Positions 6,058 through 59,715 of a stretch of DNA of 64,000 bases are shown piece by piece (positions within the stretch are counted from its first letter, which is position 1; every line of letters begins with the position of its first letter). The position numbers and the translations under genes were made by a program. Under the pieces are notes generated by a model. That model had not been told where the DNA came from, did no database searches, and saw only the letters and a program-made list of their open reading frames with translations. This DNA is from Sphingobacteriales bacterium (GTDB taxonomy: Bacteria; Bacteroidota; Bacteroidia; Chitinophagales; JADIYW01). The stretch is taken from NCBI GenBank assembly GCA_947460245.1, contig CANHGL010000005.1, positions 25,121 to 89,120 of the forward strand. The letters are read 5' to 3'.

Positions 6058-6960
6058 TTATTCTTTATCAATTATATCAAGGAGACGGTTTAGATCAGAA
6101 GTGGAATAAAAAGGAATAATAATCTCACCTTTATCTGTACTGGTTTTTTTGATCTTAACTTTTGTTTCAAAAATATCCATCAATTTAGTTTGAACACTTT
6201 TATAGGCAGCAGGCAATGGAGCCTCTGTATTATCTTTTTTTCTGCTAGAAGTTCCATTAGAAAGCAATCTAACCAATTCTTCCGTTTTACGCACAGATAA
6301 ACCTTTTGAATTGATTTCTTTTAAAACATACAACTGTTTGTCTACCTCCTGAATTCCGATGATAGCTCTAGCATGTCCCATGGATAGAACTTTTTCTCTT
6401 AGTGCTTTTTGTATCTCCGGTGGAAGTTTTAATAAGCGCAGATAGTTACTTACAGTAGACCTGTCTTTTCCAAGACGCTCTCCGAGGTTTTCATGGGTAA
6501 GATTACATTCATCAATTAATCGCTGATAGGTGAGTGCCACTTCCATTGAATTCAGGTCTTCCCGCTGAATATTTTCAATCAAAGCCATCTCTACAACTTC
6601 CTGATCGTTTGCTGTTCTAACATAGGCCGGGATTTCTATCATCCCCGCCATCTTGGATGCACGCAATCTTCTTTCACCAGAAATTAATTGATATTTCCTT
6701 TCAGCAACTTTTCGAACGGTAATAGGTTGAATCACTCCATGAACACGAATAGAACTTGCTAATTCCTCTAAAGCCTGCTGATTAAAATCTGCACGTGGTT
6801 GGAATGGATTTACTTCTATTTGTTCTAGTCTGATTTTAGGTACGGTATTGATGATAGAGTCTTCATCAGTTGCACTAATCTTTAGCACTTCCGTATCATC
6901 GTCTATATCTGATAATAACGCACGTATTCCCTTACCTAAGGCATCTTTTTTCTTGTTCAT
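6058..6960 (-). CDS. parB: Chromosome partitioning protein ParB
   Basis: ParB box LISGERRLRAS, a HTH region (LTHENLGERLGKDRSTVSNYLRLL), and location downstream of parA. Confidence 0.9.
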   Translation of the reverse strand: MNKKKDALGKGIRALLSDIDDDTEVLKISATDEDSIINTVPKIRLEQIEVNPFQPRADFNQQALEELASSIRVHGVIQPITVRKVAERKYQLISGERRLRASKMAGMIEIPAYVRTANDQEVVEMALIENIQREDLNSMEVALTYQRLIDECNLTHENLGERLGKDRSTVSNYLRLLKLPPEIQKALREKVLSMGHARAIIGIQEVDKQLYVLKEINSKGLSVRKTEELVRLLSNGTSSRKKDNTEAPLPAAYKSVQTKLMDIFETKVKIKKTSTDKGEIIIPFYSTSDLNRLLDIIDKE

Positions 6961-6983
6961 ACTTTATATTTTAGGGTGCAGTG

Positions 6984-7829
6984 TTAGTTTAGATTTTTAT
7001 TTTCCATAGCCTGTATGGAAAGACTAGTAGTATCTACAATTTTTTCATCCATAGGAACATTAGTCATCCCGTTATTTTGCAGGATTTCTCTTGCAAGGTT
7101 CAGATAATTGATGGCACCTTTGCTATCGGCATCATAAAGAATAATAGGCTGTCGCAAACTTTGAGCTTCTCCTAATCTAGTATTTCTATGGATAATAGTA
7201 TTGAAGACGCTGGTTTCGAATCTTCGCTTTACTTCAGAGACTACCTGATTAGACAGGTTTAATCTTTGATCATACATCGTCAATAAAATACCTTCTATTT
7301 CTAATTCTTTGTTTAGTCTCGACTGAACAATTTTAATAGTGTTGAGTAGTTTTCCTAATCCTTCCAATGCAAAGTATTCGCATTGAACAGGTACTAAAAC
7401 AGCATCAGATGCAGTTAGTGCGTTTACGGTAATTAAACCTAATGAAGGGGAGCAGTCAATGATTATAAAGTCGTAATTTTTCTTTAAATCCTGCAATAAG
7501 CCTTTTAAGATTTTCTCCCTGTTCGGGTGATTGATTAACTCAATCTCTGCACCAACAAGGTCCAGATGAGACGGTAATAAAAATAGATTTGGAGTATCTG
7601 TTTCTAAAATGATATCTTTTGGTTTAGCAGCATCTATAAGACATTCATAAAGACTAATCTTTATATTTCTTGGATCAAATCCACATCCACTCGTACTGTT
7701 TGCCTGAGGGTCTGCATCAATGAGAAGTGTCTTCTGTTCTAGTATTGCTAAACTCGCTGCCAGGTTTACCGCTGTTGTTGTTTTTCCAACACCGCCTTTT
7801 TGATTCGCTACACTTATTATCTTTCCCAT
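6984..7829 (-). CDS. parA: Chromosome partitioning ATPase ParA/Soj
   Basis: Deviant Walker A NQKGGVGKTTTAVNLA, Walker B FIIIDCSPS. 281 aa. Confidence 0.9.
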   Translation of the reverse strand: MGKIISVANQKGGVGKTTTAVNLAASLAILEQKTLLIDADPQANSTSGCGFDPRNIKISLYECLIDAAKPKDIILETDTPNLFLLPSHLDLVGAEIELINHPNREKILKGLLQDLKKNYDFIIIDCSPSLGLITVNALTASDAVLVPVQCEYFALEGLGKLLNTIKIVQSRLNKELEIEGILLTMYDQRLNLSNQVVSEVKRRFETSVFNTIIHRNTRLGEAQSLRQPIILYDADSKGAINYLNLAREILQNNGMTNVPMDEKIVDTTSLSIQAMENKNLN

Positions 7830-7847
7830 ATATTATCTTTCCTTTTA

Positions 7848-8528
7848 TTATAATTCTATACTATCTCCTATATTCAATAAAATCAATTCTTTTCCATGTT
7901 GGGTGAATTTCTGTTGAGCAGCTACATGATCAATTTTGATGTAACCAAAAGTGTCGAAATGAACACCAATAATTTTATTGCATTGAATAAAATCAGCGGC
8001 TATAATGGCATCATCAGCACCCATCGTAAAGTTATCACCAATGGGCAGAACAGCAAATTTAAGAGCTGCCCAGCGGGGTATTAGTTGCATATCCATTGTA
8101 AGTGCCGTATCCCCTGAATAGTAATAATCACCATCACCAGTATTTACAACAAACCCCATCGGATTTGCGCCATAGGTACCATCGGGAAGTGAGGAGGAGT
8201 GCTGGGCGACAACACATTTTATGGTTCCAAAATCAGATTGCCATTTTCCGCCTATGTTCATAGGTCTGAAATTTTGCAAACCTTGTTTAGACAGCCATTC
8301 ATATACCTCATAAGCACAAATAACGGTGGCATTTGTTATTTTGGCAATGGCCACTACATCGGCTACATGATCTTCATGACCATGTGTTAATGCAATATAG
8401 TCGCACTCTATGGTGTTGATATCAATATGTTTTGCCAGTTCATTGGGGGTGATAAATGGATCAAATAAAAGCTTTTTTCCATTTGCTTCCACCAAAAAAC
8501 AAGCATGTCCGTAAAACGTGAGTTTCAT
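7848..8528 (-). CDS. Metallo-beta-lactamase-fold metal-dependent hydrolase (UPF0173-like)
   Basis: 226 aa. MKLTFYGHACFLVE start and the metal motif LTHGHEDHV. Confidence 0.8.
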   Translation of the reverse strand: MKLTFYGHACFLVEANGKKLLFDPFITPNELAKHIDINTIECDYIALTHGHEDHVADVVAIAKITNATVICAYEVYEWLSKQGLQNFRPMNIGGKWQSDFGTIKCVVAQHSSSLPDGTYGANPMGFVVNTGDGDYYYSGDTALTMDMQLIPRWAALKFAVLPIGDNFTMGADDAIIAADFIQCNKIIGVHFDTFGYIKIDHVAAQQKFTQHGKELILLNIGDSIEL

Positions 8529-9248: not shown

Positions 9249-10864
9249 TGTATTACATGAAATTAAAATATAGCATTATCGTACTGGCATCAATATTGCT
9301 GAGTAGCTGTAATTCCGGTCCTGCTAAAAGTAACAAGGTATTTCATATGAATATCTCTGCCGGACTTACCTCTTTGGACCCTGCATTTTCCAAGGATCAG
9401 GCTACCATGTGGTGCGATAACCAATTATATAATGGTTTAGTGCAGATAGACGGTGCACTTCATGTAAAGCCTTGTATTGCTAAATCCTGGACCATTAGTG
9501 ATGATGGATTAACGTATGATTTTATTCTTAGAAAAGATGTTTTTTTTCATGACCATGCACAGTTTCCAAATGGCAAGGGTAGGAAAGTAGTTGCTCAGGA
9601 TTTTGTATACTCGTTCAATAGACTGATTGACTCCACCGTTGCCTCAACGGGTGGATGGCTATTTCATAATAAAGTAGATGTAAATCAACCTTTTGAAGCA
9701 ATAAATGATACGGTATTTAGGATCCATTTATTAAGTTCCTTTCAGCCTTTATTGGGTATGCTGACATTGCAATACTGTTCTGTAGTACCTAAAGAAGTAG
9801 TTGATTTCTATGGTAAGGATTTTCGTTCACATCCTATTGGCACAGGTCCATTTAAATTAGTAAGATGGGAAGAGAATAACACCTTGATTTTGAAAAGAAA
9901 TGAGGCTTATTTTGAAACAGATACTGCAGGTAATAGATTACCTTATCTGGAAGGTGTTCGATTTAGCTTTATTGCAGATAAGGGGACTGAATTTCTGCAA
10001 TTCTCGCAGGGTAAACTGGATTTTATGACGGGGCTGGATATTTCCTATAAGGATAAACTGCTTACTGCTGATGGTAAACTTCAAGAGGAATGGAAGCATC
10101 AGCTGGTTTTTGAAAAAATGCCTTATCTCAATACGGAATATTTAGGTATATCAATGCTAAAACAGCCCGTTGAGGCTCTTAAGAATAAGAAAGTCAGACA
10201 GGCCATTAATTACGCTATAGATCGTAAAAAGATGATTACTTTTTTACGAAATGGTATTGGAGTTCCCGCAGAGCATGGAATGATACCTAAGGGTATTCCT
10301 TGTTTTGATGATAAGGTTGTAAAAGGATATACATATGATCCTCAAAAGTCCAAACAGCTTTTAGAAGAAGCCGGTTATCCGAATGGGAAAGGGATTGGTA
10401 CTATTAAAATATATTCAAATCCAAGCTATCAGGATTTAATTACTAATATTGCCAATGAGCTAACCAATATTGGTATAACTTTAGAAATTGAAAATACACC
10501 GGCCACATTTTTACGAGAGGCTATGCGTAAAAATGAAGTACCGTTTTTCAGAGCTTCGTGGATTGGTGATTATCCTGATGGAGAAAACTACCTAACACTT
10601 TTTTATAGTAAAAATGGAGCTCCACCAAATTACACCTTCTTTAAAAATGAGCAATATGACAAGCTATATGAAGCAGCTTTAAAAGAGACAAATCAAGAAA
10701 AAGTATATGCCTTATATCATCAAATGGAGCAATTGATTATTGAAGAAGCTCCTGTTGTTCCTTTGTTTTATGATGAAGTGACACGTTTTAAACAAAAGTA
10801 TGTTCATGGTTTACCGAATAACGCAATGAATATGATAATTTTGAAAGAGGTGCAGATAAAATAA
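9248..10864 (+). CDS. ABC-transporter substrate-binding lipoprotein, family 5 (peptide/nickel type); orphan
   Basis: Lipoprotein signal (ILLSSC). 538 aa with SBP_bac_5-like blocks (FHDHAQF..., IGTGPFKLVRWE, LEYLGI-like NTEYLGISM). The start overlaps the previous stop (TAATG). Confidence 0.8.
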   Translation: MYYMKLKYSIIVLASILLSSCNSGPAKSNKVFHMNISAGLTSLDPAFSKDQATMWCDNQLYNGLVQIDGALHVKPCIAKSWTISDDGLTYDFILRKDVFFHDHAQFPNGKGRKVVAQDFVYSFNRLIDSTVASTGGWLFHNKVDVNQPFEAINDTVFRIHLLSSFQPLLGMLTLQYCSVVPKEVVDFYGKDFRSHPIGTGPFKLVRWEENNTLILKRNEAYFETDTAGNRLPYLEGVRFSFIADKGTEFLQFSQGKLDFMTGLDISYKDKLLTADGKLQEEWKHQLVFEKMPYLNTEYLGISMLKQPVEALKNKKVRQAINYAIDRKKMITFLRNGIGVPAEHGMIPKGIPCFDDKVVKGYTYDPQKSKQLLEEAGYPNGKGIGTIKIYSNPSYQDLITNIANELTNIGITLEIENTPATFLREAMRKNEVPFFRASWIGDYPDGENYLTLFYSKNGAPPNYTFFKNEQYDKLYEAALKETNQEKVYALYHQMEQLIIEEAPVVPLFYDEVTRFKQKYVHGLPNNAMNMIILKEVQIK

Positions 10865-10883
10865 ACATTTCTAATTAATACAT

Positions 10884-11687
10884 ATGATACACAATATTAT
10901 AAAAGACAAATCCACTAAGCTATTTATTTTTTTAGGAGGATTTTTTATTGCAAATGCATTTATTGCTGAAGTTATCGGAGTTAAAATATTCTCTTTGGAG
11001 AAAACAATTGGTATTACACCATTTCAAATACCATTATTTGGAAATGTATTTTCTTTTAATCTGACTGCAGGTGTTTTACTTTGGCCTGTTGTTTTCATTA
11101 TGACCGATATCATTAATGAATACTATGGCGAAAGAGGTGTTCGTTTTTTGTCTTACCTTACTGTTACGCTTCTGGCTTATGCCTTTGCCATGTATTATCT
11201 GGCGATTCACTTGGTTCCTGCTGATTGGTGGCCAGGCTCAAAAACAGCTCAGGGTGTAAATGATATGCAATCTGCTTATGCACAGGTTTTCGGACAGGGA
11301 ATTGCTATTATTTTAGGATCATTAATTGCATTTTTGGTTGGTCAGGTAGTGGACGTAGTGATATTTCATAAAATAAAAAAATGGAGTGGAGAGAAATATA
11401 TTTGGCTTAGGAGTACTGGCTCTACAGTAGTTTCTCAGTTTATTGACAGTTTTGTAGTGTTATTCTTTGCGTTTTATCTTTACCCTGCCTACATCAGTGA
11501 TGCTAATGGTAAAGCATGGGCCTTTAGTTTAGTGATGTCTATCTGTATTGGTAATTATATCTATAAATTTCTGATGGCAGTTGTTCTAACACCCGTTATC
11601 TATTGGGTGCATCATCTTATCGAGGGTTTCCTTGGGCATGAGCTGGCTACTCAAATGAAAAAGGCTGCATTGAAAGATGAAGTCTAA
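10884..11687 (+). CDS. yhhQ: Queuosine-precursor transporter (YhhQ/Vut/DUF165 family)
   Basis: Polytopic membrane protein of 267 aa with the conserved blocks WPVVFIMTDIINEYYG and VVSQFIDSFVV. Confidence 0.7.
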   Translation: MIHNIIKDKSTKLFIFLGGFFIANAFIAEVIGVKIFSLEKTIGITPFQIPLFGNVFSFNLTAGVLLWPVVFIMTDIINEYYGERGVRFLSYLTVTLLAYAFAMYYLAIHLVPADWWPGSKTAQGVNDMQSAYAQVFGQGIAIILGSLIAFLVGQVVDVVIFHKIKKWSGEKYIWLRSTGSTVVSQFIDSFVVLFFAFYLYPAYISDANGKAWAFSLVMSICIGNYIYKFLMAVVLTPVIYWVHHLIEGFLGHELATQMKKAALKDEV

Positions 11688-11728
11688 TCTTATTATAATA
11701 TTTTACTATCTTTGATATATAGAATTTT

Positions 11729-50183: not shown

Positions 50184-51605
50184 ATGAATAAAAGAATTAA
50201 TGCATTTAGCAGTGATGCAATGGGTAATATGGATGCTACATCCATTTCCGAGGCTATTGCAAACAAGTCTGTTTCCGTTTCAGAAATTACAGAAGCGGCC
50301 ATTGCCCGAGCTGAAAGTGTGAATGGCGCTTTAAATGCCATTGTCATAAAGACTTATGATGATGCAAGAAACAATTCTCCCCAACAAAAAGACAGCATAT
50401 TTTATGGTGTTCCTACCTTCATCAAGGATAATGAGCCTTTAAAAGGATACCCCACACAAAAAGGTACGGGTGCTTTCAAAGCCAAACCTGAAAAAAAGAA
50501 TAGTAAATACACTAATCAGTTTCTGTCAACCGGGCTTAATTGCCTCGGCAAGAGCACATTACCGGAATTTGGATTTATTTGCAGTACAGAAAATGAGCGT
50601 TGGGGCATAACCAGAAACCCCTGGGATACTGATTATACCACAGGTGGTTCTTCTTCAGGTTCGGCAGCACTGGTAGCCAGTGGAGTAGTTCCAATAGCGG
50701 TTGCCAACGATGGTGCAGGGTCTACCCGAATTCCGGCATCCTGCTGCGGTTTGGTAGGACTAAAACCCACCAGAGGCAGATTATTGCCGCTACATGGAAC
50801 AGAGACGTTGCCTGTAAACATCGTATACTCGGGTGTGCTAACGAGATCCGTAAGAGATACTGCAGCTTTTTATTCGGGAGCTGAGCAATACTACTATAAT
50901 TCTAAATTACCCAAATTAGGTCATATTCAATTGCCACTGAATCGAAGATTGCGCATTGCTTTGTTCGAGAATTTACCCGCAGATCGTCAGGGGCATATGG
51001 ATGAGGATACCTACCGTGTGCAGCTAGAAACCGCAAAATTATTGGAATCCTTAGGACATCAAGTAGAAATTATTAAAGTTCCGCTTAATATTGAAGACCT
51101 TACCGTACATTATTTAAATTACTACGGATTTCTATCGTATATGACCAATACATTTAGTCGGCTGGTTTTAGGGGCAAAGGTAGATAAATCTGTTTTGGAA
51201 CCTTTTACAATAGGATTGATGGATACGTTTAAGAAGAATAAATTTCAGCTTCCCAAAAGTTTGCGCATACTGAAAAAGTCGGCTGAAGAAACAGAAAGCA
51301 AACTAGAGCAGAATTATGATTTGATAATGACATCTGTTACAACGAAAATCACTCCAAAGATTGGTTATTTTTCTCCCACATTGAGTTATGATGAAATTGC
51401 ATATCGTGCGGCTGACTTTGCCTCATTTTTACCTTTATTCAATATCTCGGGATCTCCAGCTATTTCCTTGCCATTAGGAACTGCAAGCAATGGAATGCCT
51501 GTTGGGGTACAATTTGCGGCACCATTTGGAAAAGACGCCCTATTGATAGAACTTGCTTTGGAGCTGGAAGCGGCACAACCCTGGAAATTTATTTATAACG
51601 CCTAA
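50184..51605 (+). CDS. Amidase-signature family amidase
   Basis: AS signature GGSSSGSAALVASG with the upstream catalytic Lys block PTFIKDN. 473 aa. Confidence 0.8.
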   Translation: MNKRINAFSSDAMGNMDATSISEAIANKSVSVSEITEAAIARAESVNGALNAIVIKTYDDARNNSPQQKDSIFYGVPTFIKDNEPLKGYPTQKGTGAFKAKPEKKNSKYTNQFLSTGLNCLGKSTLPEFGFICSTENERWGITRNPWDTDYTTGGSSSGSAALVASGVVPIAVANDGAGSTRIPASCCGLVGLKPTRGRLLPLHGTETLPVNIVYSGVLTRSVRDTAAFYSGAEQYYYNSKLPKLGHIQLPLNRRLRIALFENLPADRQGHMDEDTYRVQLETAKLLESLGHQVEIIKVPLNIEDLTVHYLNYYGFLSYMTNTFSRLVLGAKVDKSVLEPFTIGLMDTFKKNKFQLPKSLRILKKSAEETESKLEQNYDLIMTSVTTKITPKIGYFSPTLSYDEIAYRAADFASFLPLFNISGSPAISLPLGTASNGMPVGVQFAAPFGKDALLIELALELEAAQPWKFIYNA

Positions 51606-51617
51606 AAGCTAATTGAT

Positions 51618-51836
51618 TTGTTGACACCCCAAGCCAATAACCCGCTACATGGTAAGAACCTGGAGAGTATCCTCGAATATTTAGTAGATTATTATGGATG
51701 GGAGTATTTAGGCACACAGATTAATATTCGTTGCTTTAACTATGACCCCAGCATCAAATCCAGTTTAAAGTTTTTACGTAGAACGCCATGGGCGAGAAAG
51801 AAAGTAGAGGAGATGTATTTAGAAAGCTTAGGGTAG
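51618..51836 (+). CDS. VF530/DUF2132-family small protein
   Basis: 72 aa. [25 protein letters not shown]...IRCF...[24 protein letters not shown] matches the family pattern as I recall it. TTG start. Confidence 0.55.
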
Positions 51837-51843
51837 TTTAAAG

Positions 51844-53181
51844 CTATTCTGCAAAATTGATTTTGACAGCTCTATTTTTAATCTTCTGATCTTTAGCCAA
51901 TTTGAGTACTTTATCTGCTTTTTCACGTTTTACTGCAGCATAAGCGAAAAAATCTTTCACATCTACAAATCCCAATTCATCTCTGTTGAGTTTCCCAACT
52001 TTAGACAAGAATCCTACGATATCCGTCTTATTTATGGCATCTTTTTTGCCTTTGCTGATGAATAAGGTGACCCAAAGTGGAGGAGAAGGCAGTGAATATT
52101 TATCAGATAGCTCTAAAACTTCAGTGCTTTCAGCCAGATAGGCTGGGCGTTCCTCCTTTTGGGTTAGAATCATAAAAGCACTGCCTGAGGCATGCATGCG
52201 CGCGGTTCGGCCATTTCTGTGTATGAAAACCTCTTCAGAATGTGGCTGCTGGTAATGAATAATATTCTTTACTTCGCGGATATCCAAACCTCTGGAAGCT
52301 AAATCTGTAGTAATCAAAACATTAACACTACCATTAGTAAATTTTACCAATACACGCTCTCTTTCTTTTTGGTCGAGTTTACCATGAAAACATGCATTTT
52401 CTATGTTTTTACGATTCAGATGATCACTGATACGCTCTACAACTTCGCGGTGATTACAAAAAACGATGGTAGGTGCATTGCTGTCCAGGCTGCAGAGTAA
52501 CTTTAAAAAAGCTTCCAGCTTATCTACATCTTCCGAAAGCACTAATTTTACAGAAAGACGGGTATTTGAAGTACTATCTTTATCTAAAAAATTAAGCTCC
52601 CGAACCTCTGATATTTTTATATACCTAGGAATATCAATGGATTGTGTAGCAGATATTAAAATTTTACTTTTAACATTTGGAAGATGCTGAACTATATATT
52701 CCATTTCCTTAGAAAAACCAAATTCCAAAGATTTATCAAATTCATCGAAGATTAATGTATGCAGAGCGGTCGTATTAAATGTTCCTTTACCTATATGATC
52801 TGCGATTCTACCTGGAGTACCAATCAGAACTGAGGGAGGAGACGATAAATTGTTCTTTTCCACCTTAAAATCATGGCCTCCGTAGCAACAATTTACCTTT
52901 AAACCGGTCTTCATCTGCTTAAAAACAGACTCTATCTGAAGCGCAAGTTCTCTGGAAGGCACCAATATCAATGCTTGAACGTGAGTGGATTCTTTATCTA
53001 TAAGCTTTAATAATGGCAGTAAATAAGCCAATGTTTTACCGCTTCCTGTTGGCGACAAGAGCATTATATCAGAAGAGTGCTTAAAATGTTCGAGCATGGA
53101 TTGCTGCATAGGATTCAGAGCATCTATGGAAAAATGCTGAAGAATCTGATCTAAATTTTGATTTTCATTCATGAAGTCCAA
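51844..53181 (-). CDS. DEAD-box-family RNA helicase with DbpA-type C-terminal RNA-binding domain (motif II = DEFD)
   Basis: Q motif/motif I (LNPMQQS..., SPTGSGKT), motif II IFDEFD, motif III SAT, motif VI HRNGRTAR. The C-terminal about 75 aa (LFISKGKKDAINKTDIVGFL...) look like a DbpA domain. Confidence 0.8.
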   Translation of the reverse strand: MDFMNENQNLDQILQHFSIDALNPMQQSMLEHFKHSSDIMLLSPTGSGKTLAYLLPLLKLIDKESTHVQALILVPSRELALQIESVFKQMKTGLKVNCCYGGHDFKVEKNNLSSPPSVLIGTPGRIADHIGKGTFNTTALHTLIFDEFDKSLEFGFSKEMEYIVQHLPNVKSKILISATQSIDIPRYIKISEVRELNFLDKDSTSNTRLSVKLVLSEDVDKLEAFLKLLCSLDSNAPTIVFCNHREVVERISDHLNRKNIENACFHGKLDQKERERVLVKFTNGSVNVLITTDLASRGLDIREVKNIIHYQQPHSEEVFIHRNGRTARMHASGSAFMILTQKEERPAYLAESTEVLELSDKYSLPSPPLWVTLFISKGKKDAINKTDIVGFLSKVGKLNRDELGFVDVKDFFAYAAVKREKADKVLKLAKDQKIKNRAVKINFAE

Positions 53182-53364: not shown

Positions 53365-55089
53365 TTAAGATCTTGGAAAACGCTTATACTGATCATAGGC
53401 ATAAAAGCTAAGATACTCACCATCTTCTATACTTTTTTGAATTGCCCTCCAATATTTAGGTTCAAATAATTCGCTGTGCTCAGCTAAAAAGATATCACCG
53501 ATTGGTCCATCAGGAGCCATAAAACCCATGAACTCTTCCGGAAAAATATCATTGGATTCAGCATGTATCATATCAAAAGTTCCTCGGGTATCATCCTCTA
53601 GATTAGGTTGTGGCAGTCTGCGGAATCTGCATTCTGTTACTTCTGCTATTTCATCATAATCATAGAAAATAACCCGACCATGACGGGTAACCCCAAAGTT
53701 CTTTAATAATAGATCCCCAGGGAAAATATTGGCAGCTGCCAGCTCTTTAACACAAAATCCATAATCCAGAATAACACTGCACAAATCAATAGGATTTTTG
53801 GTTTCCTTGAGATAGAGATTTAAAGGCGTCATTCTTCGTTCAATATAAACGTGTTTCAGCAATACCTTATCGCCTTTAAATTCGACGGTTTCTTTACACG
53901 AACGCTCTAATTCTTCTATAAGTTCAGTGGTAAAAAGATGCGCTGGAAACTCCAAATTCTCAAATAAGTGGGCAAATGCCATCCTTCCTACTCTGTCATT
54001 TACCTCAACCTCTTCGTATTTCTTAATTACAAATTCACGGGTACAATTTTTAGGGGCTTCAAATTTATCACGTATCACTTTAAACACAAAATTGTAATAC
54101 TTAAGGGTAAAAACGGCCATCACCATACCCTTTATTCCGGGTGCGATAATAAACTTATCGTCATGACTATTGGTATAATTTACCAAATCCCTGTATAATA
54201 TAGTCTTACCATGACGGTAATAACCAATAGAATCATACAACTCTCCCACTGCTTTATGGGTTAACATCGCTTTCAGGTAGTCAATAATTTGCGCAGGGTA
54301 TTTTGTAGAAACAAAGAAGGACGCACGGGTAAAACTAAAGATGATACTGATTTCAGCCGGTATGTAAATTACAGCATCTACAAAAATGCCCTTTTCCTCA
54401 TTCAAAAGCGGAATAACTATAGGCATTGACCAATTCTTATAAAATAGCCTTCCTATAATAAAAGCACCTCTGTTTCTATAGAAAACAGGCTTTAAAATCT
54501 CAATTCTATCTAATAAGAGATTTGATTTTTGATGAATAATAACAGGAGCCATTTCATCAAAAATATGCTGTGCATCTCTTTTGATGTCTTCATATGGTAC
54601 ATCAAATTTAAAATGATGAAGTATTTGTGTAATAGCAGCAACAGAGAAATGGGAACAATCAAAAATCTCAAAAATCTCCTCATCAAATTTTGGCATAGGC
54701 TTATAATCCGTCTGATCAAAAAACTCTATATCCGGATTAAAACTCTTATCCAGAAATACTTTCCTTGTAATAGAATTATAAAATGTTTCAGAATTTAGTC
54801 GATGCGGTTTGTCTTTAATAAGATCAGAGTAAATTAGCTTAATATCTTTCCAATAAGTAATATCATGAATATGATCTCCTAAAATTTGTTGGGTTAAGGA
54901 ATACACTTCTCTTACATAGTTACCATATAGTTTATAGCGATCCTTCTGACCTTTAAATAAGTCTTTAAAGTTTCTATTTTCAAAGTACAGCTTGGCGTGC
55001 TCAGTAATATCATTGAAGTTAGTAAGTAGGATATCATATTTTTCAGCAATATTGCTGGCTACCATATGAACGGTATCTTTCTTTGTCAT
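53365..55089 (-). CDS. aceK: Isocitrate dehydrogenase kinase/phosphatase homologue
   Basis: 574 aa, collinear with E. coli AceK as I remember it: APGIKGMVMAVFTL, FKVIRDKF, NDRVGRMA, HVYIERRMTPLNLYL, AAANIFPGDLLLKNFGVTRHGRVIFYDYDEI, and FPEEF near the C terminus. Confidence 0.85.
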   Translation of the reverse strand: MTKKDTVHMVASNIAEKYDILLTNFNDITEHAKLYFENRNFKDLFKGQKDRYKLYGNYVREVYSLTQQILGDHIHDITYWKDIKLIYSDLIKDKPHRLNSETFYNSITRKVFLDKSFNPDIEFFDQTDYKPMPKFDEEIFEIFDCSHFSVAAITQILHHFKFDVPYEDIKRDAQHIFDEMAPVIIHQKSNLLLDRIEILKPVFYRNRGAFIIGRLFYKNWSMPIVIPLLNEEKGIFVDAVIYIPAEISIIFSFTRASFFVSTKYPAQIIDYLKAMLTHKAVGELYDSIGYYRHGKTILYRDLVNYTNSHDDKFIIAPGIKGMVMAVFTLKYYNFVFKVIRDKFEAPKNCTREFVIKKYEEVEVNDRVGRMAFAHLFENLEFPAHLFTTELIEELERSCKETVEFKGDKVLLKHVYIERRMTPLNLYLKETKNPIDLCSVILDYGFCVKELAAANIFPGDLLLKNFGVTRHGRVIFYDYDEIAEVTECRFRRLPQPNLEDDTRGTFDMIHAESNDIFPEEFMGFMAPDGPIGDIFLAEHSELFEPKYWRAIQKSIEDGEYLSFYAYDQYKRFPRS

Positions 55090-55121
55090 TTTGTAGTATT
55101 TTTGACTTTCAGTCTTACAAA

Positions 55122-55129
55122 CAAATATA
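55122..55129 (-). promoter_or_regulatory. Candidate -7 promoter box (TATATTTG) for aceK
   Basis: The reverse complement of CAAATATA is an exact TAnnTTTG match, 33 nt upstream of the aceK ATG. Confidence 0.35.
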
Positions 55130-55199
55130 ATTAAATAAAGCTGATTGATATTTAGGTATTTGAACTGTTTAGTTTAATAAACACACCATTGTTTTAAAA

Positions 55200-57014
55200 G
55201 TGCATAAAAAGTTAGTTATCCATATCATCTTATTTTTTCTAATGGCAGCATGGAAAGCTGACTATGCCAAAACTATTCGTATCGATAATAATTTTAACTC
55301 CTTAGAACTCTATAATGGATTAAGTAAAAAAAAGAGCTCCACTCCCGACCTCTTTAAACTGTCTATAAAATTACTGAATACTACTACTGAAAACAGACAA
55401 CTATACCTTAGTATTATCAACCCAACTTTAGATAGCATATTCATTTTTGAAAATGGTAGCACCTCTATATTAGGAGATTATCAATCCTTCAATAAACGAA
55501 AGTTTAAACACATCAATCATGTATACCCAATATTACTTCATGGTAGCGAAGAAAAAGAAATCATCCTAAACATCAGAGAGCAACATCAGTATAATAATTT
55601 CAGAATCACCCTGACAACAGAAAATAATTTTATAAAAACAACAAATCATGATAATTTTTTTATCGGTATTTTCTTCGGACTTCTTTTTACTTATCTATTA
55701 TTATTGATATGCTTGTATATATTTAGCAAAAGCAGATTTTATTTAAAATATTTAACTATAAACGTCTTCATGATCCTTATATACCTACAATTTACAGGTA
55801 TTGGGAATCAGTATGTTTGGTTCTATTCAGTAACAGTTCAGAAATACATAACTATTATTGCAGTAAGCGGATATATTATTTCACACATATATTTTATTAG
55901 AACTTTTTTTTCAGCAGAATCTAACTATAATATAGGAAGGTATTTATTTATAATATTTAGTACCATAATGATATTATTACTTATATCCTACCTATTAGAT
56001 ATCTATCAACCTATGATTCAATATCTACAAAAGAACAGCTTATTTTATACTTTAAATACTGTTTTTTTAGGATATGGTGCATATATACTTGTTGTATCAG
56101 TTTATTCTTATATCAATACAGGAAGAAGAGAAAGTATCTGGATAATATCAGGAACCGGATTGCATATAATAAACTGGATATTATTTATCAATAATAATTA
56201 CGGAACGAATTATATTCTAAATTCAATAGACTTATTAAAATTAAGAACAAACCATGTATTTATAGCACCAATAAATTTTTATCTGACAACTGTAGAAATA
56301 ATAATGGTATCTATATTCTTAGCCACAAACTATTACAAACTTATTTATGAGAATAATATATCTTCTAAAAAGCTAAATCTGCTTCAAAAAAAGAATTTGA
56401 ATAGATTTATTCTTGGCCAGGAAGAAGAAAGAAATAGAATATCATCAGATGTAACAGATGTCATCTTAAAAGATATACAAATACTAAAAAAAACAATTAA
56501 TTCGTTAAAATTAAAAGATGATCCAAAAGAAATACTACCTAATGTAATTTTGGATATTGATAAAACCATTCAAGACATAAGAGATATTAGCGGAAACTAT
56601 ATTGCACCTGAAATACAAAAAATGTCTGTTAAGGACATAATAATTACTGCGACTAATAAGCTAAATGACTATTTAATAACAGAATATCAATTGCCTAATA
56701 TCACAGATGCAGTATTCCTGAATTCAACAGCGAATATAAATCTATATCGGATTCTGCAGGAAATCTCAAATAATATCATTAAACATGCAAATGCAAATCA
56801 TGTAACTATAAGAATTACCATCGATGAGAAAACTACACAAATTACAATAGAAGATAACGGAATTGGATTTAATCAGGATATTAAAAATACAGGAATTGGA
56901 TTAATGAATATTGAATCCAGAGTTAATCTATTAAATGGAGCTATAAATATATCCCCATTAGAAAATCACGGAACATCTATAAATATTCTAATTCCAATAA
57001 TAAATAACCAATGA
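55200..57014 (+). CDS. 7TM-DISM sensor kinase paralogue A: intact HATPase_c boxes, phospho-acceptor His replaced by Thr
   Basis: Signal peptide, an extracytoplasmic domain of about 130 aa, seven hydrophobic helices and a linker. A HisKA_3-like H-box reads EERNRISSDVTD, followed by N box LQEISNNIIKHA, G1 EDNGIGF and G2 TGIGLMNIESR. GTG start. Confidence 0.75.
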   Translation: MHKKLVIHIILFFLMAAWKADYAKTIRIDNNFNSLELYNGLSKKKSSTPDLFKLSIKLLNTTTENRQLYLSIINPTLDSIFIFENGSTSILGDYQSFNKRKFKHINHVYPILLHGSEEKEIILNIREQHQYNNFRITLTTENNFIKTTNHDNFFIGIFFGLLFTYLLLLICLYIFSKSRFYLKYLTINVFMILIYLQFTGIGNQYVWFYSVTVQKYITIIAVSGYIISHIYFIRTFFSAESNYNIGRYLFIIFSTIMILLLISYLLDIYQPMIQYLQKNSLFYTLNTVFLGYGAYILVVSVYSYINTGRRESIWIISGTGLHIINWILFINNNYGTNYILNSIDLLKLRTNHVFIAPINFYLTTVEIIMVSIFLATNYYKLIYENNISSKKLNLLQKKNLNRFILGQEEERNRISSDVTDVILKDIQILKKTINSLKLKDDPKEILPNVILDIDKTIQDIRDISGNYIAPEIQKMSVKDIIITATNKLNDYLITEYQLPNITDAVFLNSTANINLYRILQEISNNIIKHANANHVTIRITIDEKTTQITIEDNGIGFNQDIKNTGIGLMNIESRVNLLNGAINISPLENHGTSINILIPIINNQ

Positions 57015-58783
57015 AAATACTTCTATATATAGTGTTATTTATATGTTTCTGTAAGCATTCACTTGCACAAGACAAAACCATACTCATCAATGAAAGCTTG
57101 AGATGTATTTCTATATCCAGTAAAATAACTAATCAGTCAATAAAGAAAGGCTATATCACACAGCAGATAATGCTAAAAAATTGTGAAAATCATATAAATG
57201 AATTGATGCTTGAACTACCTGCGCAACAATTTGAAAAAATATATTTTACACAAACAGAACAACATAAAATCAAAAGTAAATATAATTACACCTCAAAGAA
57301 AATGAGTGATAGAAGATATTATGACAGAAATATAATATTTCCAATATCACTAAAACCAAATCAAATCAGCCAAATTAATCTATACTTTAAGAAACCAAAT
57401 AAAGTCCAAAAAACAAAGGCATTATTATGGAAAAAAGATGCTAAGATTGCAAGAACAGAGGCACTTGAATTAACAAGGGGTATTCTTTATGGCATATTAA
57501 TATTATTTACACTTTCGGCCTTAATAGTATCTATTCTCATACAAAAGAGAAATTACTATTACTATGTATTATATCTAAGTACAGGTATAATCTATCTTTT
57601 CGTGAATAATAATTTAGGCAATGAATTATTATGGCCAAATTATCCATCTATTGATTTATTCCTAAAAAAAATAATGCTTTCTGCATACCTAATATCCTCT
57701 ATGGTATTTTTGAAAGGATTTATTGAAAGGCGTATTTATTTACCAAAACTACAAATGGCATTACAGTACTTTATATATTTTAGTTTAATACTGATTGCTA
57801 CATCTTTATCTATCTCATTTTTCTCCAATAAAGCACAGCTATTGTTTATAGAAATACAAAATATTTTTATATACCTAAGTATAATGAGTATAGTCTTAAC
57901 TTTTATATTTATTTACTTTAATACTCAGGAAAAATCTATCGTAAGCTTTACATTATTATACTTTTTATCATTTTCATTTTTTTTATTTTATCCTCAACCT
58001 GAATTTGGTGAAAATATCATGGGTGTTTACATTGGACAACTATACACCTATAGTAATGCATTTATTGTAGCTATCATAATTTGTTTTACTACTGTTTATG
58101 GTGTACTTCAAGTAATAAAGAATAATGAAGTTGTGAAAAAAGAAATGAGTATTGCGAATTCTGATAACACATTTTCTATTATCCACGGCCAACAAAATGA
58201 ACGCATACGAGTTGGAAGAGAACTACATGATGGTATTGGCATTATGATGTCTGCCATTAAAATGAAAATGTCATCCATAAATATTCAAGATATTGAAGAA
58301 GCTAATAATATTACACAAATCAATAAAGATATCGATACAATTTGCGCTACCATAAGAACATACTCCCATCTACTGTTACCACCTACTCTAAAGAAATTTG
58401 GATTGCAGGTAGCGCTCAAAGATATTCTGGAAGCCCATCGGATTCAAACAAAAACTAAAACTAAGTATAACCTAAATATACCTGATGAACTAACAGATAC
58501 ATCACAACAACTTATCCATGATATCATAAAGAGCTTAATAGCGTATTTCACAGCATTCCCTCCTGACGAATTACAGATTAGTATATTCATACTATCCTCT
58601 ATAAAAGAAGCACAAATTAGGATAAAGTATAAGGGAGTAAATATGAATTTAAAAAATACAGATATCCAATCTGTAATTACATCTGTTAATCTATTACAAG
58701 GTAATTTTCAAACTCAATTGATAAATGCATGGAATTATACAATTCATATAGAATTACCCGTATTATTTAAAGAAGAGAACTGA
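57011..58783 (+). CDS. 7TM-DISM sensor kinase paralogue B: canonical HisKA_3 H-box, degenerate ATP-binding domain
   Basis: Same architecture as paralogue A. The H-box NERIRVGRELHDGIG is intact, but the positions aligning with the N, G1 and G2 boxes read IIKSLIAYFTA, KYKGVNM and DIQSVITSVN. The start overlaps the upstream stop in ATGA. Confidence 0.7.
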   Translation: MKILLYIVLFICFCKHSLAQDKTILINESLRCISISSKITNQSIKKGYITQQIMLKNCENHINELMLELPAQQFEKIYFTQTEQHKIKSKYNYTSKKMSDRRYYDRNIIFPISLKPNQISQINLYFKKPNKVQKTKALLWKKDAKIARTEALELTRGILYGILILFTLSALIVSILIQKRNYYYYVLYLSTGIIYLFVNNNLGNELLWPNYPSIDLFLKKIMLSAYLISSMVFLKGFIERRIYLPKLQMALQYFIYFSLILIATSLSISFFSNKAQLLFIEIQNIFIYLSIMSIVLTFIFIYFNTQEKSIVSFTLLYFLSFSFFLFYPQPEFGENIMGVYIGQLYTYSNAFIVAIIICFTTVYGVLQVIKNNEVVKKEMSIANSDNTFSIIHGQQNERIRVGRELHDGIGIMMSAIKMKMSSINIQDIEEANNITQINKDIDTICATIRTYSHLLLPPTLKKFGLQVALKDILEAHRIQTKTKTKYNLNIPDELTDTSQQLIHDIIKSLIAYFTAFPPDELQISIFILSSIKEAQIRIKYKGVNMNLKNTDIQSVITSVNLLQGNFQTQLINAWNYTIHIELPVLFKEEN

Positions 58784-59715
58784 ATATCTATATCTGGATA
58801 GTCTCTCTTAAAGTTTGATAAAGCATCTTCAACTTTAGTTTGATAAGCAAAAGCAGATTGGGTTCCAGGATGTTTGATCTTATGCTGATAGAGCATTTTA
58901 AGTTTATCTATTCTGTCCATACAATTCAAAGTAGATGAAGACATATAGGAGTCTATAAATCGTTCCCAGATATATTGAATCGCTACATTATTGGGATGAA
59001 GCATATCTTCTGCGTAGAACCTATAATCCCTGAGTTCATCCATCATAATCTCATAGGCAGGAAAATACGTTATATTCCCGTACATCTCTTTTAGCTGATG
59101 AATACTTTCCAGGAGTATAGACTTACTTCTTGAATTTTCTACGGCTCCTTCTCTCCAGTGTCTTACAGGACTTACTGTAAATATGACAATCTTATTTTCG
59201 AGCAAAGGATGTATCTCTTTATAGGCCAATAAAATATCATCTGTAGAAAGTATTCTCTTATCAAATTCAGATCCAGGTATTTTATGGCAATTTGCAACTA
59301 TACTATCCCGCTCAATATGTCTGTACACAAATGAAGTACCTAATGTTATCAGTATATATTTACTTTCCTTTAATTGCTGATGGGCAATAGACAATCGATT
59401 ATTGATTTTCTCGAGCACCTGAGCTTTATTTAAACCAGAAAAACTACCATGGTGATCCAGGGAAAGGTATAAATCATTATAGTATAATAAATCCTTACTA
59501 GAATAATAATCTTCCGATACTATGCGTTGAATAGATTTAAAAATGGAGATTGGATTATATACTATTCCAAAAGGATTACAGTCCAACTCGAATCCATAAG
59601 AATGTAACATTCCTCCTATATTTTCTGTAAAGCATGATCCCAACATCAACAGCCTGTCAAGATGACAAATAGAGAATGGAGGCCTTTGTAGAAGAACTTT
59701 CGTGCTGAATTCCAT
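58744..59715 (-). CDS. GSCFA-domain protein
   Basis: N-terminal MLGSCFTENIG (GSCF motif) and SGNH-like block order. 323 aa. Confidence 0.7.
   Translation of the reverse strand: MEFSTKVLLQRPPFSICHLDRLLMLGSCFTENIGGMLHSYGFELDCNPFGIVYNPISIFKSIQRIVSEDYYSSKDLLYYNDLYLSLDHHGSFSGLNKAQVLEKINNRLSIAHQQLKESKYILITLGTSFVYRHIERDSIVANCHKIPGSEFDKRILSTDDILLAYKEIHPLLENKIVIFTVSPVRHWREGAVENSRSKSILLESIHQLKEMYGNITYFPAYEIMMDELRDYRFYAEDMLHPNNVAIQYIWERFIDSYMSSSTLNCMDRIDKLKMLYQHKIKHPGTQSAFAYQTKVEDALSNFKRDYPDIDIQFSSLNNTGNSI

Follow-up and report, generated by a model that had tools for sequence, protein, structure and literature searches.

We describe a gene pair in a 64-kb stretch of DNA (hereafter the window) that comes from a Sphingobacteriales bacterium and is part of the 108-kb metagenome scaffold ERZ28612991. 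The two genes, here called A (55200-57014) and B (57011-58783) and both read on the forward strand, encode transmembrane sensor proteins of the 7TMR-DISM type with reciprocal losses. Protein A has an intact ATP-binding catalytic domain and a DHp domain (for dimerization and histidine phosphotransfer) without its histidine. Protein B has a canonical DHp domain of the HisKA_3 type and a catalytically dead domain that resembles the catalytic and ATP-binding (CA) domain of histidine kinases. Our favoured interpretation, to which we give a probability of about 0.6, is that A and B would form an obligate heteromeric split sensor histidine kinase of the HisKA_3 type, with trans-phosphorylation of B by A. 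The same view had been put forward in an earlier reading of the DNA (hereafter the sequence-only reading), and the sequence comparisons, structure predictions and comparative genomics described below lend it support.

Architecture of the two proteins

The open reading frames (ORFs) of A and B encode 604 and 590 amino acids, respectively, and A begins with a GTG codon. The deposited gene call for A begins at the ATG at 55242 and gives a protein of 590 residues. The alignment of orthologs of A (n = 26) supports the GTG at 55200 as the start, since it supplies a conserved N terminus that resembles a signal peptide. The stop codon of A and the start codon of B overlap in ATGA (57011-57014), an arrangement of the kind expected for translational coupling. 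A check of the sequence found both reading frames, this overlap, the two codons at the acceptor positions described below and all of the H, N, G1 and G2 motifs exactly where the sequence-only reading had placed them.

The AlphaFold2 (AF2) models of A and B, with predicted local distance difference test (pLDDT) values of 77.8 and 78.3, have a common plan: an N-terminal helix, a beta-sandwich ectodomain, seven transmembrane (TM) helices, a hairpin of helices and, at the C terminus, an alpha/beta domain. In both models TM7 runs on into helix 1 of the DHp domain. The extracytoplasmic domain of A (residues ~25-140, 55272-55619) matches 7TMR-DISMED2 (PF07696) with 31.4 bits against a cut-off of 22, and the modelled strands cover residues 25-140. 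The corresponding domain of B (residues ~23-141, 57077-57433) reaches only 14.3 bits, under the same cut-off. A Pfam match was, however, recorded for several B orthologs, and the model of B shows a beta-sandwich with strands in residues 23-141. Both proteins carry 7TMR-DISM_7TM (PF07695) above the cut-off of 29 bits, with 33.6 bits for A and 37.9 bits for B. The seven TM helices occupy residues ~141-381 in A (55620-56342) and ~142-365 in B (57434-58105); the modelled helices of A are 141-176, 179-206, 211-241, 244-269, 278-307, 311-344 and 357-434, the last being continuous with DHp helix 1. The cytoplasmic halves of A and B are homologous along their whole length, and hhalign aligned them over 212 columns with a probability of 98.3%. 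The Pfam matches, the models and this alignment agree with the view, taken already in the sequence-only reading, that the two proteins share one architecture.

Protein A has lost the acceptor histidine

In Pfam searches protein A matched HATPase_c (PF02518) with 49 bits and had no match to HisKA_3 (PF07730). The HATPase_c domain (56676-56996) contains an N box (QEISNNIIKHA, residues 519-530), a G1 box (EDNGIGF, 551-557) and a G2 box (TGIGLMNIESR, 564-574), and it also matches profiles of the CA domains of VraS and DesK. The motif residues of the three boxes are invariant in the orthologs. Among NCBIfam families, both A and B are closest to the HisKA_3-class kinases MctS, UhpB, LiaS, NarQ and NarX. 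Of the features required of this class, A possesses the N, G1 and G2 boxes of HATPase_c and lacks the H-box with an acceptor histidine.

The DHp domain of A (residues ~385-465, 56352-56594) is degenerate, with GQEEERNRISSDVTD as the remnant of the H-box. The codon at 56454-56456 is ACA and encodes Thr419, which stands at the acceptor position of HisKA_3. This placement was obtained from two alignments. In the hhalign alignment Thr419 faces His406 of B, the stretch GQEEERNRISSDV-T419-D of A being paired with GQQNERIRVGREL-H406-D of B. The family profile of A, in turn, spans the DHp and CA region of DesK, and the column of Thr419 corresponds to DesK residue 188, which is the acceptor histidine. 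In the A orthologs and in four more distant loci this column is occupied by G, E, D, S, N, T, Y or Q and never by His, so that the Thr itself is variable.

An alternative acceptor histidine in A was considered and rejected. The cytoplasmic part of A contains only His529, His534 and His590, all of which lie within the CA domain. The stretch from residue 381 to the N box is free of histidine, and so are the DHp helices. A histidine that is nearly invariant among the orthologs at the exit of TM7 (NYHxLI) is Tyr in the present protein. In agreement with the sequence-only reading, the profile alignments placed no other histidine of A at the acceptor position.

Protein B has lost the ATP site

Protein B shows the opposite pattern. 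HisKA_3 was matched with 29.5 bits (cut-off 24), and no match to HATPase_c was obtained in Pfam. The DHp domain of B (58121-58399) is modelled as a hairpin of a long helix (341-421) and a second helix (428-455). It has a canonical H-box, NERIRVGRELHDGIGIMMS, in which the CAT codon at 58226-58228 encodes the acceptor His406. Residues E404, L405, H406, D407, G408, I409 and G410 are invariant in 31 of 31 orthologs, and the distant loci retain ELHD.

The C-terminal domain of B (residues ~483-583, 58457-58759) has an alpha/beta fold like that of a CA domain but lacks the N, G1 and G2 boxes. In the hhalign alignment, IIKSLIAYFTA, KYKGVNM and DIQSVITSVN stand opposite the three boxes of A. The boxes are missing from B in every ortholog, which bears out the earlier view that B has no functional ATP site. 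B therefore has the acceptor-histidine H-box required of the HisKA_3 class and lacks the N, G1 and G2 boxes, even though the fold is kept. The pLDDT of this domain is 85-90 in the AF2 model. The lid region is short: strand 533-541 and helix 550-561 are only ~8 residues apart, as against ~13 in A. The family profile of B had no match among PDB sequences, so that the CA-like domain is visible only by fold comparison. In Foldseek the top PDB matches of the B model were the DHp and CA chains of DesKC. The C-terminal domain of B is therefore a retained CA fold that lacks the ATP-site residues.

A shorter form of B was also observed. The B protein of one lineage (L028, 9995-11317) has no extracytoplasmic domain; it begins at TM1, and its gene overlaps the stop codon of A directly. 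P0281 and P0282 (~436-440 residues) have the same form. In the L028 lineage, A alone would sense periplasmic signals.

Conservation and selection

We scanned one genome per species and found relatives of B in 27 uncultured metagenome-assembled genomes of the Chitinophagales, Saprospirales and Sphingobacteriales (loci L002-L028). In 25 of these 27 loci the gene immediately upstream of B is A, and the remaining two (L024 and L026) are contig fragments that start inside B. The reciprocal losses are identical in all 27 species-level loci and in four distant ones. One of the four (L081) was reached via AceK; the others (L086, L087 and L089) hold three of the most distant B-type proteins, and in each of them an A-type gene comes first and overlaps the B-type gene by 4 nt. 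In the deeper lineages that share the reciprocal state, B is only ~30% identical. Protein searches gave ~40 clusters of the A type, with HATPase_c in all and HisKA_3 in none, and ~65 clusters of the B type, with HisKA_3 in nearly all, a 7TM match alone in one and HATPase_c in none; many clusters of the two types lie on shared contigs. No orthologous pair with intact motifs in both genes was found among these loci. Since the same reciprocal state is present in the 27 loci and in the distant ones, the loss pattern is ancestral to a deep clade and not sporadic. At the motif level, ATP binding with catalysis and the acceptor histidine reside on separate polypeptides in more than 30 loci, which is one of the properties of a split kinase of the CheA3/CheA4 type.

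In an exhaustive profile search the B-type proteins formed a top tier of at least 220 bits, and ordinary intact kinases followed from ~183 bits. In the nearest intact relative (P0142) all four domains are present, and a gene with Response_reg and GerE domains follows immediately. This arrangement shows the ancestral canonical state. Among 147 further 7TMR-DISM/HisKA_3 representatives (P0283-P0418), a crude classification by regular expressions flagged others without an H-box or without ATP-site boxes. There may therefore be degenerate members outside this clade, although the classification is too crude beyond the top tier, which was confirmed by alignment.

The ratio of nonsynonymous to synonymous substitution rates (dN/dS) was calculated from ortholog pairs with unsaturated dS (L007/L009, L011/L013, L012/L014 and L025/L027). 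It was 0.03-0.10 for the His-less DHp domain of A and 0.006-0.08 for the pseudo-catalytic domain of B. These values are as low as those of the intact domains and show purifying selection; both "dead" domains are therefore functional parts of their proteins. The degenerate domains also carry invariant residues of their own. The ectodomains evolve fastest, with a mean pairwise identity of 0.365 for that of A. In the pair L025/L027, the codons of the A CA domain have a dS of 0.007 and the rest of A and B a dS of 0.4-1.0. This patch suggests recent recombination or gene conversion.

The stop codon of A and the start codon of B share an NTGA overlap of 4 nt in 18 of 26 loci. Five overlap in another way (by longest-ORF calling), and the remaining four have gaps of 26-44 nt. 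Overlaps of the NTGA type were found also in L086, L087 and L089. In L022 the aceK gene is broken into two ORFs (6085-7805), and B runs out of frame over its last ~25 residues (9908-11701). The contig name ('tig...') looks like that of a long-read assembly, and the breaks may be assembly indels and not real pseudogenes.

The G+C content of the pair is 27.2%, compared with 35.0% for the window and 34.4% for aceK; the pair is thus more AT-rich than its flanks, as had been noticed by eye in the sequence-only reading. In 22 of 24 loci compared, the pair lies below its own locus, typically by 1-5 points. We rejected recent horizontal transfer as an explanation for the low G+C content, since the pair is syntenic in all relatives and below its flanks in nearly all. 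The AT-richness is a property of these membrane-protein genes in nearly all relatives and gives no sign of recent foreign origin.

Genomic neighbourhood

The neighbours are those named in the sequence-only reading, and Pfam confirmed their identity. Upstream and divergent on the reverse strand lies aceK (53365-55089), which encodes isocitrate dehydrogenase kinase/phosphatase with matches to AceK_regulatory and AceK_kinase; 110 bp (55090-55199) separate it from A. Downstream and convergent lies a gene of the GSCFA family (58744-59715, reverse strand), identified from its ORF and Pfam match. Its 3' end shares 40 nt with that of B (58744-58783). A terminator scan of 54900-59000 detected no hairpin resembling an intrinsic terminator. 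A scan of the same region for sigma-70 promoters gave 28 sites where 33 were expected, which is uninformative, as promoters of Bacteroidota differ from that consensus.

No protein similar to NarL or CheY is encoded in the window, as judged by phmmer searches of all ORFs of at least 70 residues. Likewise, no consistent response regulator lies within 10 kb of the pair in the 27 related loci or in L081, L086, L087 and L089. The absence of an adjacent regulator, which the sequence-only reading had pointed out, therefore holds for the window and across the relatives. Only in L007 and L009 is there an unrelated canonical HisKA_3 kinase with a NarL-type regulator, at a distance of 6-8 kb.

The divergent aceK gene, in contrast, is a constant neighbour. 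It adjoins A in every locus of L002-L028 whose sequence extends far enough upstream, and also in L081, L087 and L089; in L086 it is not adjacent. Other Chitinophagales and Bacteroidia encode AceK homologs of 54% and 41% identity, but no such pair adjoins these. The conserved linkage suggests that the sensor pair may be functionally linked to the isocitrate dehydrogenase switch.

In most relatives the interval between aceK and A is ~400-440 bp long and holds a gene of the YjbR family (PF04237, 107 bits). It encodes 113-162 residues on the strand of A and abuts the start of A. The gene was found in 20 of the loci L002-L023 (in L007 at 7816-8172) and in L086, L087 and L089. A ferritin/Dps-like gene is inserted between it and A in L086 (3460-3999) and L087 (3545-4063). 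The YjbR-family gene is missing from the window, where the gap is 110 bp and tblastn gave no match in the 64 kb, and from L025, L027 and L028, all of which keep the pair. These absences weaken the idea that the YjbR-family protein is an essential third component.

Further upstream, the window (50184-53181) was compared with L007 (2285-5905). The window has three extra genes (an amidase, a VF530-family gene and a DEAD-box helicase) between a glycosyltransferase gene and aceK. L007 instead carries its canonical HisKA_3 kinase and NarL-type regulator upstream of a shared DUF4294/GSHPx/PIG-L/STELLO/GT2 block.

Comparison with known systems

Histidine kinases are textbook homodimers. Cis or trans firing and the activity of a single half-site have mostly been studied with engineered heterodimers of His-minus and ATP-minus subunits, and EnvZ is the classical case of such complementation. 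In GacS, a His-minus mutant (H293A) and a G2-minus mutant (G472A/G474A) are each dead alone and undergo trans-autophosphorylation when mixed (PMC8498467). The logic is the same as that proposed here, namely two individually dead subunits that are active in trans in a mixed dimer. The GacS and EnvZ subunits are, however, engineered point mutants of one homodimer, while A and B are natural, ancient and fixed in two diverged genes.

A natural split kinase is known from Rhodobacter sphaeroides, in which the activities are divided between CheA3 and CheA4. Neither autophosphorylates alone; the ATP-binding CheA4 phosphorylates the His-bearing CheA3, which then serves the regulator (PMC3591291, PMC6829392). 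It was also noted that 3.66% of the HisKA proteins in SMART have no HATPase domain and might be split kinases (PMC3591291). Unlike A and B, the CheA proteins are soluble class II kinases, and the missing domains have been physically lost from each half. A and B are full-length class I transmembrane proteins and tandem paralogs that have each kept a degenerate copy of the missing domain and a sensor domain of their own.

RetS of Pseudomonas aeruginosa resembles the present proteins in another way. It is a 7TMR-DISM kinase with a DISMED2 sensor domain and a CA domain that does not bind ATP, and it forms a canonical-looking heterodimer with GacS through the DHp domains of both (PMC8498467, PMC5992135). 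RetS inhibits a GacS that is otherwise self-sufficient, and there is no reciprocal loss. In addition, the two are not encoded as adjacent paralogs, fall into the HisKA and not the HisKA_3 class, and have receiver and HPt domains. The precedents of GacS complementation, RetS-GacS and CheA4-CheA3 nevertheless mean that a trans mechanism is well precedented.

A and B share the DHp and CA folds and the sequence class of the HisKA_3 kinases DesK, NarX and LiaS, and the model of B superposes on DesKC (3EHF, 3GIE and 5IUJ). Those kinases are homodimers in which each chain carries both motifs, and their cognate regulator of the NarL family is encoded next to them; neither A nor B has the full set of features alone. 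In the RedCDEF 'four-component' system of Myxococcus xanthus, too, a true kinase works together with a histidine-kinase-like protein that is involved in the phosphoryl flow without autophosphorylating (PMC2755868). Its architecture is different, its operon includes two response regulators, and reciprocal complementarity is absent there. The literature searched, which turned up CheA3/CheA4, RetS-GacS and RedCDEF as analogues, contained no description of reciprocally degenerate pairs of 7TMR-DISM or HisKA_3 kinases. The sequence-only reading had known of no description of such an arrangement for 7TM-DISM kinases. This stands for the pair itself and not for the concept, as the split histidine kinase is already described in CheA3/CheA4 (PMC3591291). 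What is new is the form: full-length, paralogous and translationally coupled transmembrane sensors, each with an unused degenerate domain and its own ectodomain.

Proposed mechanism and alternative interpretations

In the split-kinase mechanism that we propose, a 7TMR-DISM kinase would have been duplicated and the copies would have lost function reciprocally. A would have retained the ATP-binding catalytic domain and lost the acceptor histidine; B would have retained the acceptor histidine and the docking surface of the DHp domain and lost ATP binding. The two proteins would be produced at a ratio of ~1:1 from one coupled transcript and would associate through the DHp helices and the 7TM bundles. 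For a physical complex, the constant co-occurrence of the two genes and their translational coupling give indirect support. The simplest form would be an A:B heterodimer with a single active half-site. The CA domain of A would phosphorylate His406 of B in trans, either inside the A:B four-helix bundle or between dimers. Phosphorylated B would then act as phosphoryl donor to a response regulator of the NarL/LuxR type whose gene lies elsewhere, presumably an orphan. Since each subunit has its own fast-evolving periplasmic domain, the complex could integrate two inputs from outside the cell. An output that concerns the branch point of the tricarboxylic acid (TCA) cycle and the glyoxylate pathway is suggested by the conserved linkage to aceK. 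Complex formation, phosphotransfer from A to B, the orphan regulator and the link to AceK function are all inferred.

Three points weigh against this mechanism. First, a cognate response regulator was found neither in the window nor as a consistent neighbour within 10 kb in the relatives. Second, the A:B heterodimer would be inactive if this class of kinases autophosphorylates strictly in cis. The third point concerns the residues after the acceptor histidine. Many HisKA_3 kinases have Gln at position H+5, as part of the DxxxQ phosphatase motif known from work on NarX. B reads H-D-G-I-G-I (58229-58243, residues 407-411), with Ile at H+5 in nearly all orthologs, and it may thus not be a standard bifunctional transmitter. 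Several intact relatives in the Bacteroidota likewise lack the Gln of DxxxQ at this position.

It is worth noting that the same observations can be interpreted in other ways. A and B may be a regulatory pair of a kinase-like protein and a pseudokinase, the alternative named in the sequence-only reading, without any transfer from A to B. They would act as scaffolds or modulators of canonical kinases or of non-kinase targets, in the way that RetS acts on GacS and DivL on CckA. The histidine of B would serve only phosphatase activity or back-transfer with a regulator that is phosphorylated by another kinase. The lack of a linked regulator in the window and beside the pair in the relatives fits such a role, and in L007 and L009 a canonical kinase and NarL regulator are at least nearby; that canonical system is, however, missing from the window and from most loci. 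RetS, likewise of the 7TMR-DISM type, no longer binds ATP and exerts its effect by binding to another kinase (PMC8498467). On the other hand, this interpretation leaves three things unexplained: the losses complement each other exactly, the genes are constantly encoded together and mostly translationally coupled, and A maintains invariant ATP-site residues without an acceptor of its own. We consider it unlikely, though worth keeping in view.

A distinctly improbable interpretation is that the GHKL ATPase domain of A acts on a substrate other than histidine, as a Ser/Thr kinase or a pure ATPase, and that B signals independently. The anti-sigma factors RsbW and SpoIIAB are precedents, as they act as Ser/Thr protein kinases, and the CA domain of A has weak NCBIfam matches to both (E 0.0015-0.17). 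The YjbR-family protein, AceK or a non-His residue of B would be candidate substrates, and the conserved neighbours of the pair are indeed AceK and YjbR and not a response regulator. The CA domain of A is, however, a far better match to MctS, UhpB, LiaS, VraS and DesK, all of the HisKA_3 class. The Thr at the acceptor position varies among orthologs, the YjbR-family gene is missing from the window and three other lineages that keep the pair, and the invariant H-box of B would be left without a source of ATP.

The conserved neighbours also allow a more speculative version of the output, to which we attach little credence. The pair would bypass a classical response regulator, and a hard-wired asymmetric heterodimeric detector of the coincidence of two inputs would control AceK and, through it, the isocitrate dehydrogenase/glyoxylate-bypass switch, either directly or by way of the YjbR-family protein. 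If true, extracellular sensing would be coupled to post-translational control of central carbon flux.

Finally, although the window comes from a metagenome assembly and the pair is AT-rich relative to its flanks, sporadic decay, nascent pseudogenes or an assembly artefact can be dismissed, since the same motif states occur in more than 30 independent assemblies, the reading frames are unbroken, the degenerate domains have dN/dS values far below 1 and these domains hold invariant residues of their own.

Significance

The kind of His-minus/ATP-minus arrangement that has otherwise been engineered appears to have been fixed by evolution in two full-length transmembrane sensors and maintained by selection throughout a deep clade. 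If the split-kinase interpretation is true, the pair would offer structural and mechanistic studies a natural class I kinase that is obligately asymmetric. It would also mean that kinases classed as "incomplete" or "orphan" in domain scans can be the two parts of a single enzyme, a point of relevance to genome annotation and to censuses of two-component systems. The arrangement would provide a simple route to the integration of two signals at the membrane. The conserved linkage to aceK, moreover, is a testable lead on the regulation of the glyoxylate bypass in uncultured Chitinophagales.

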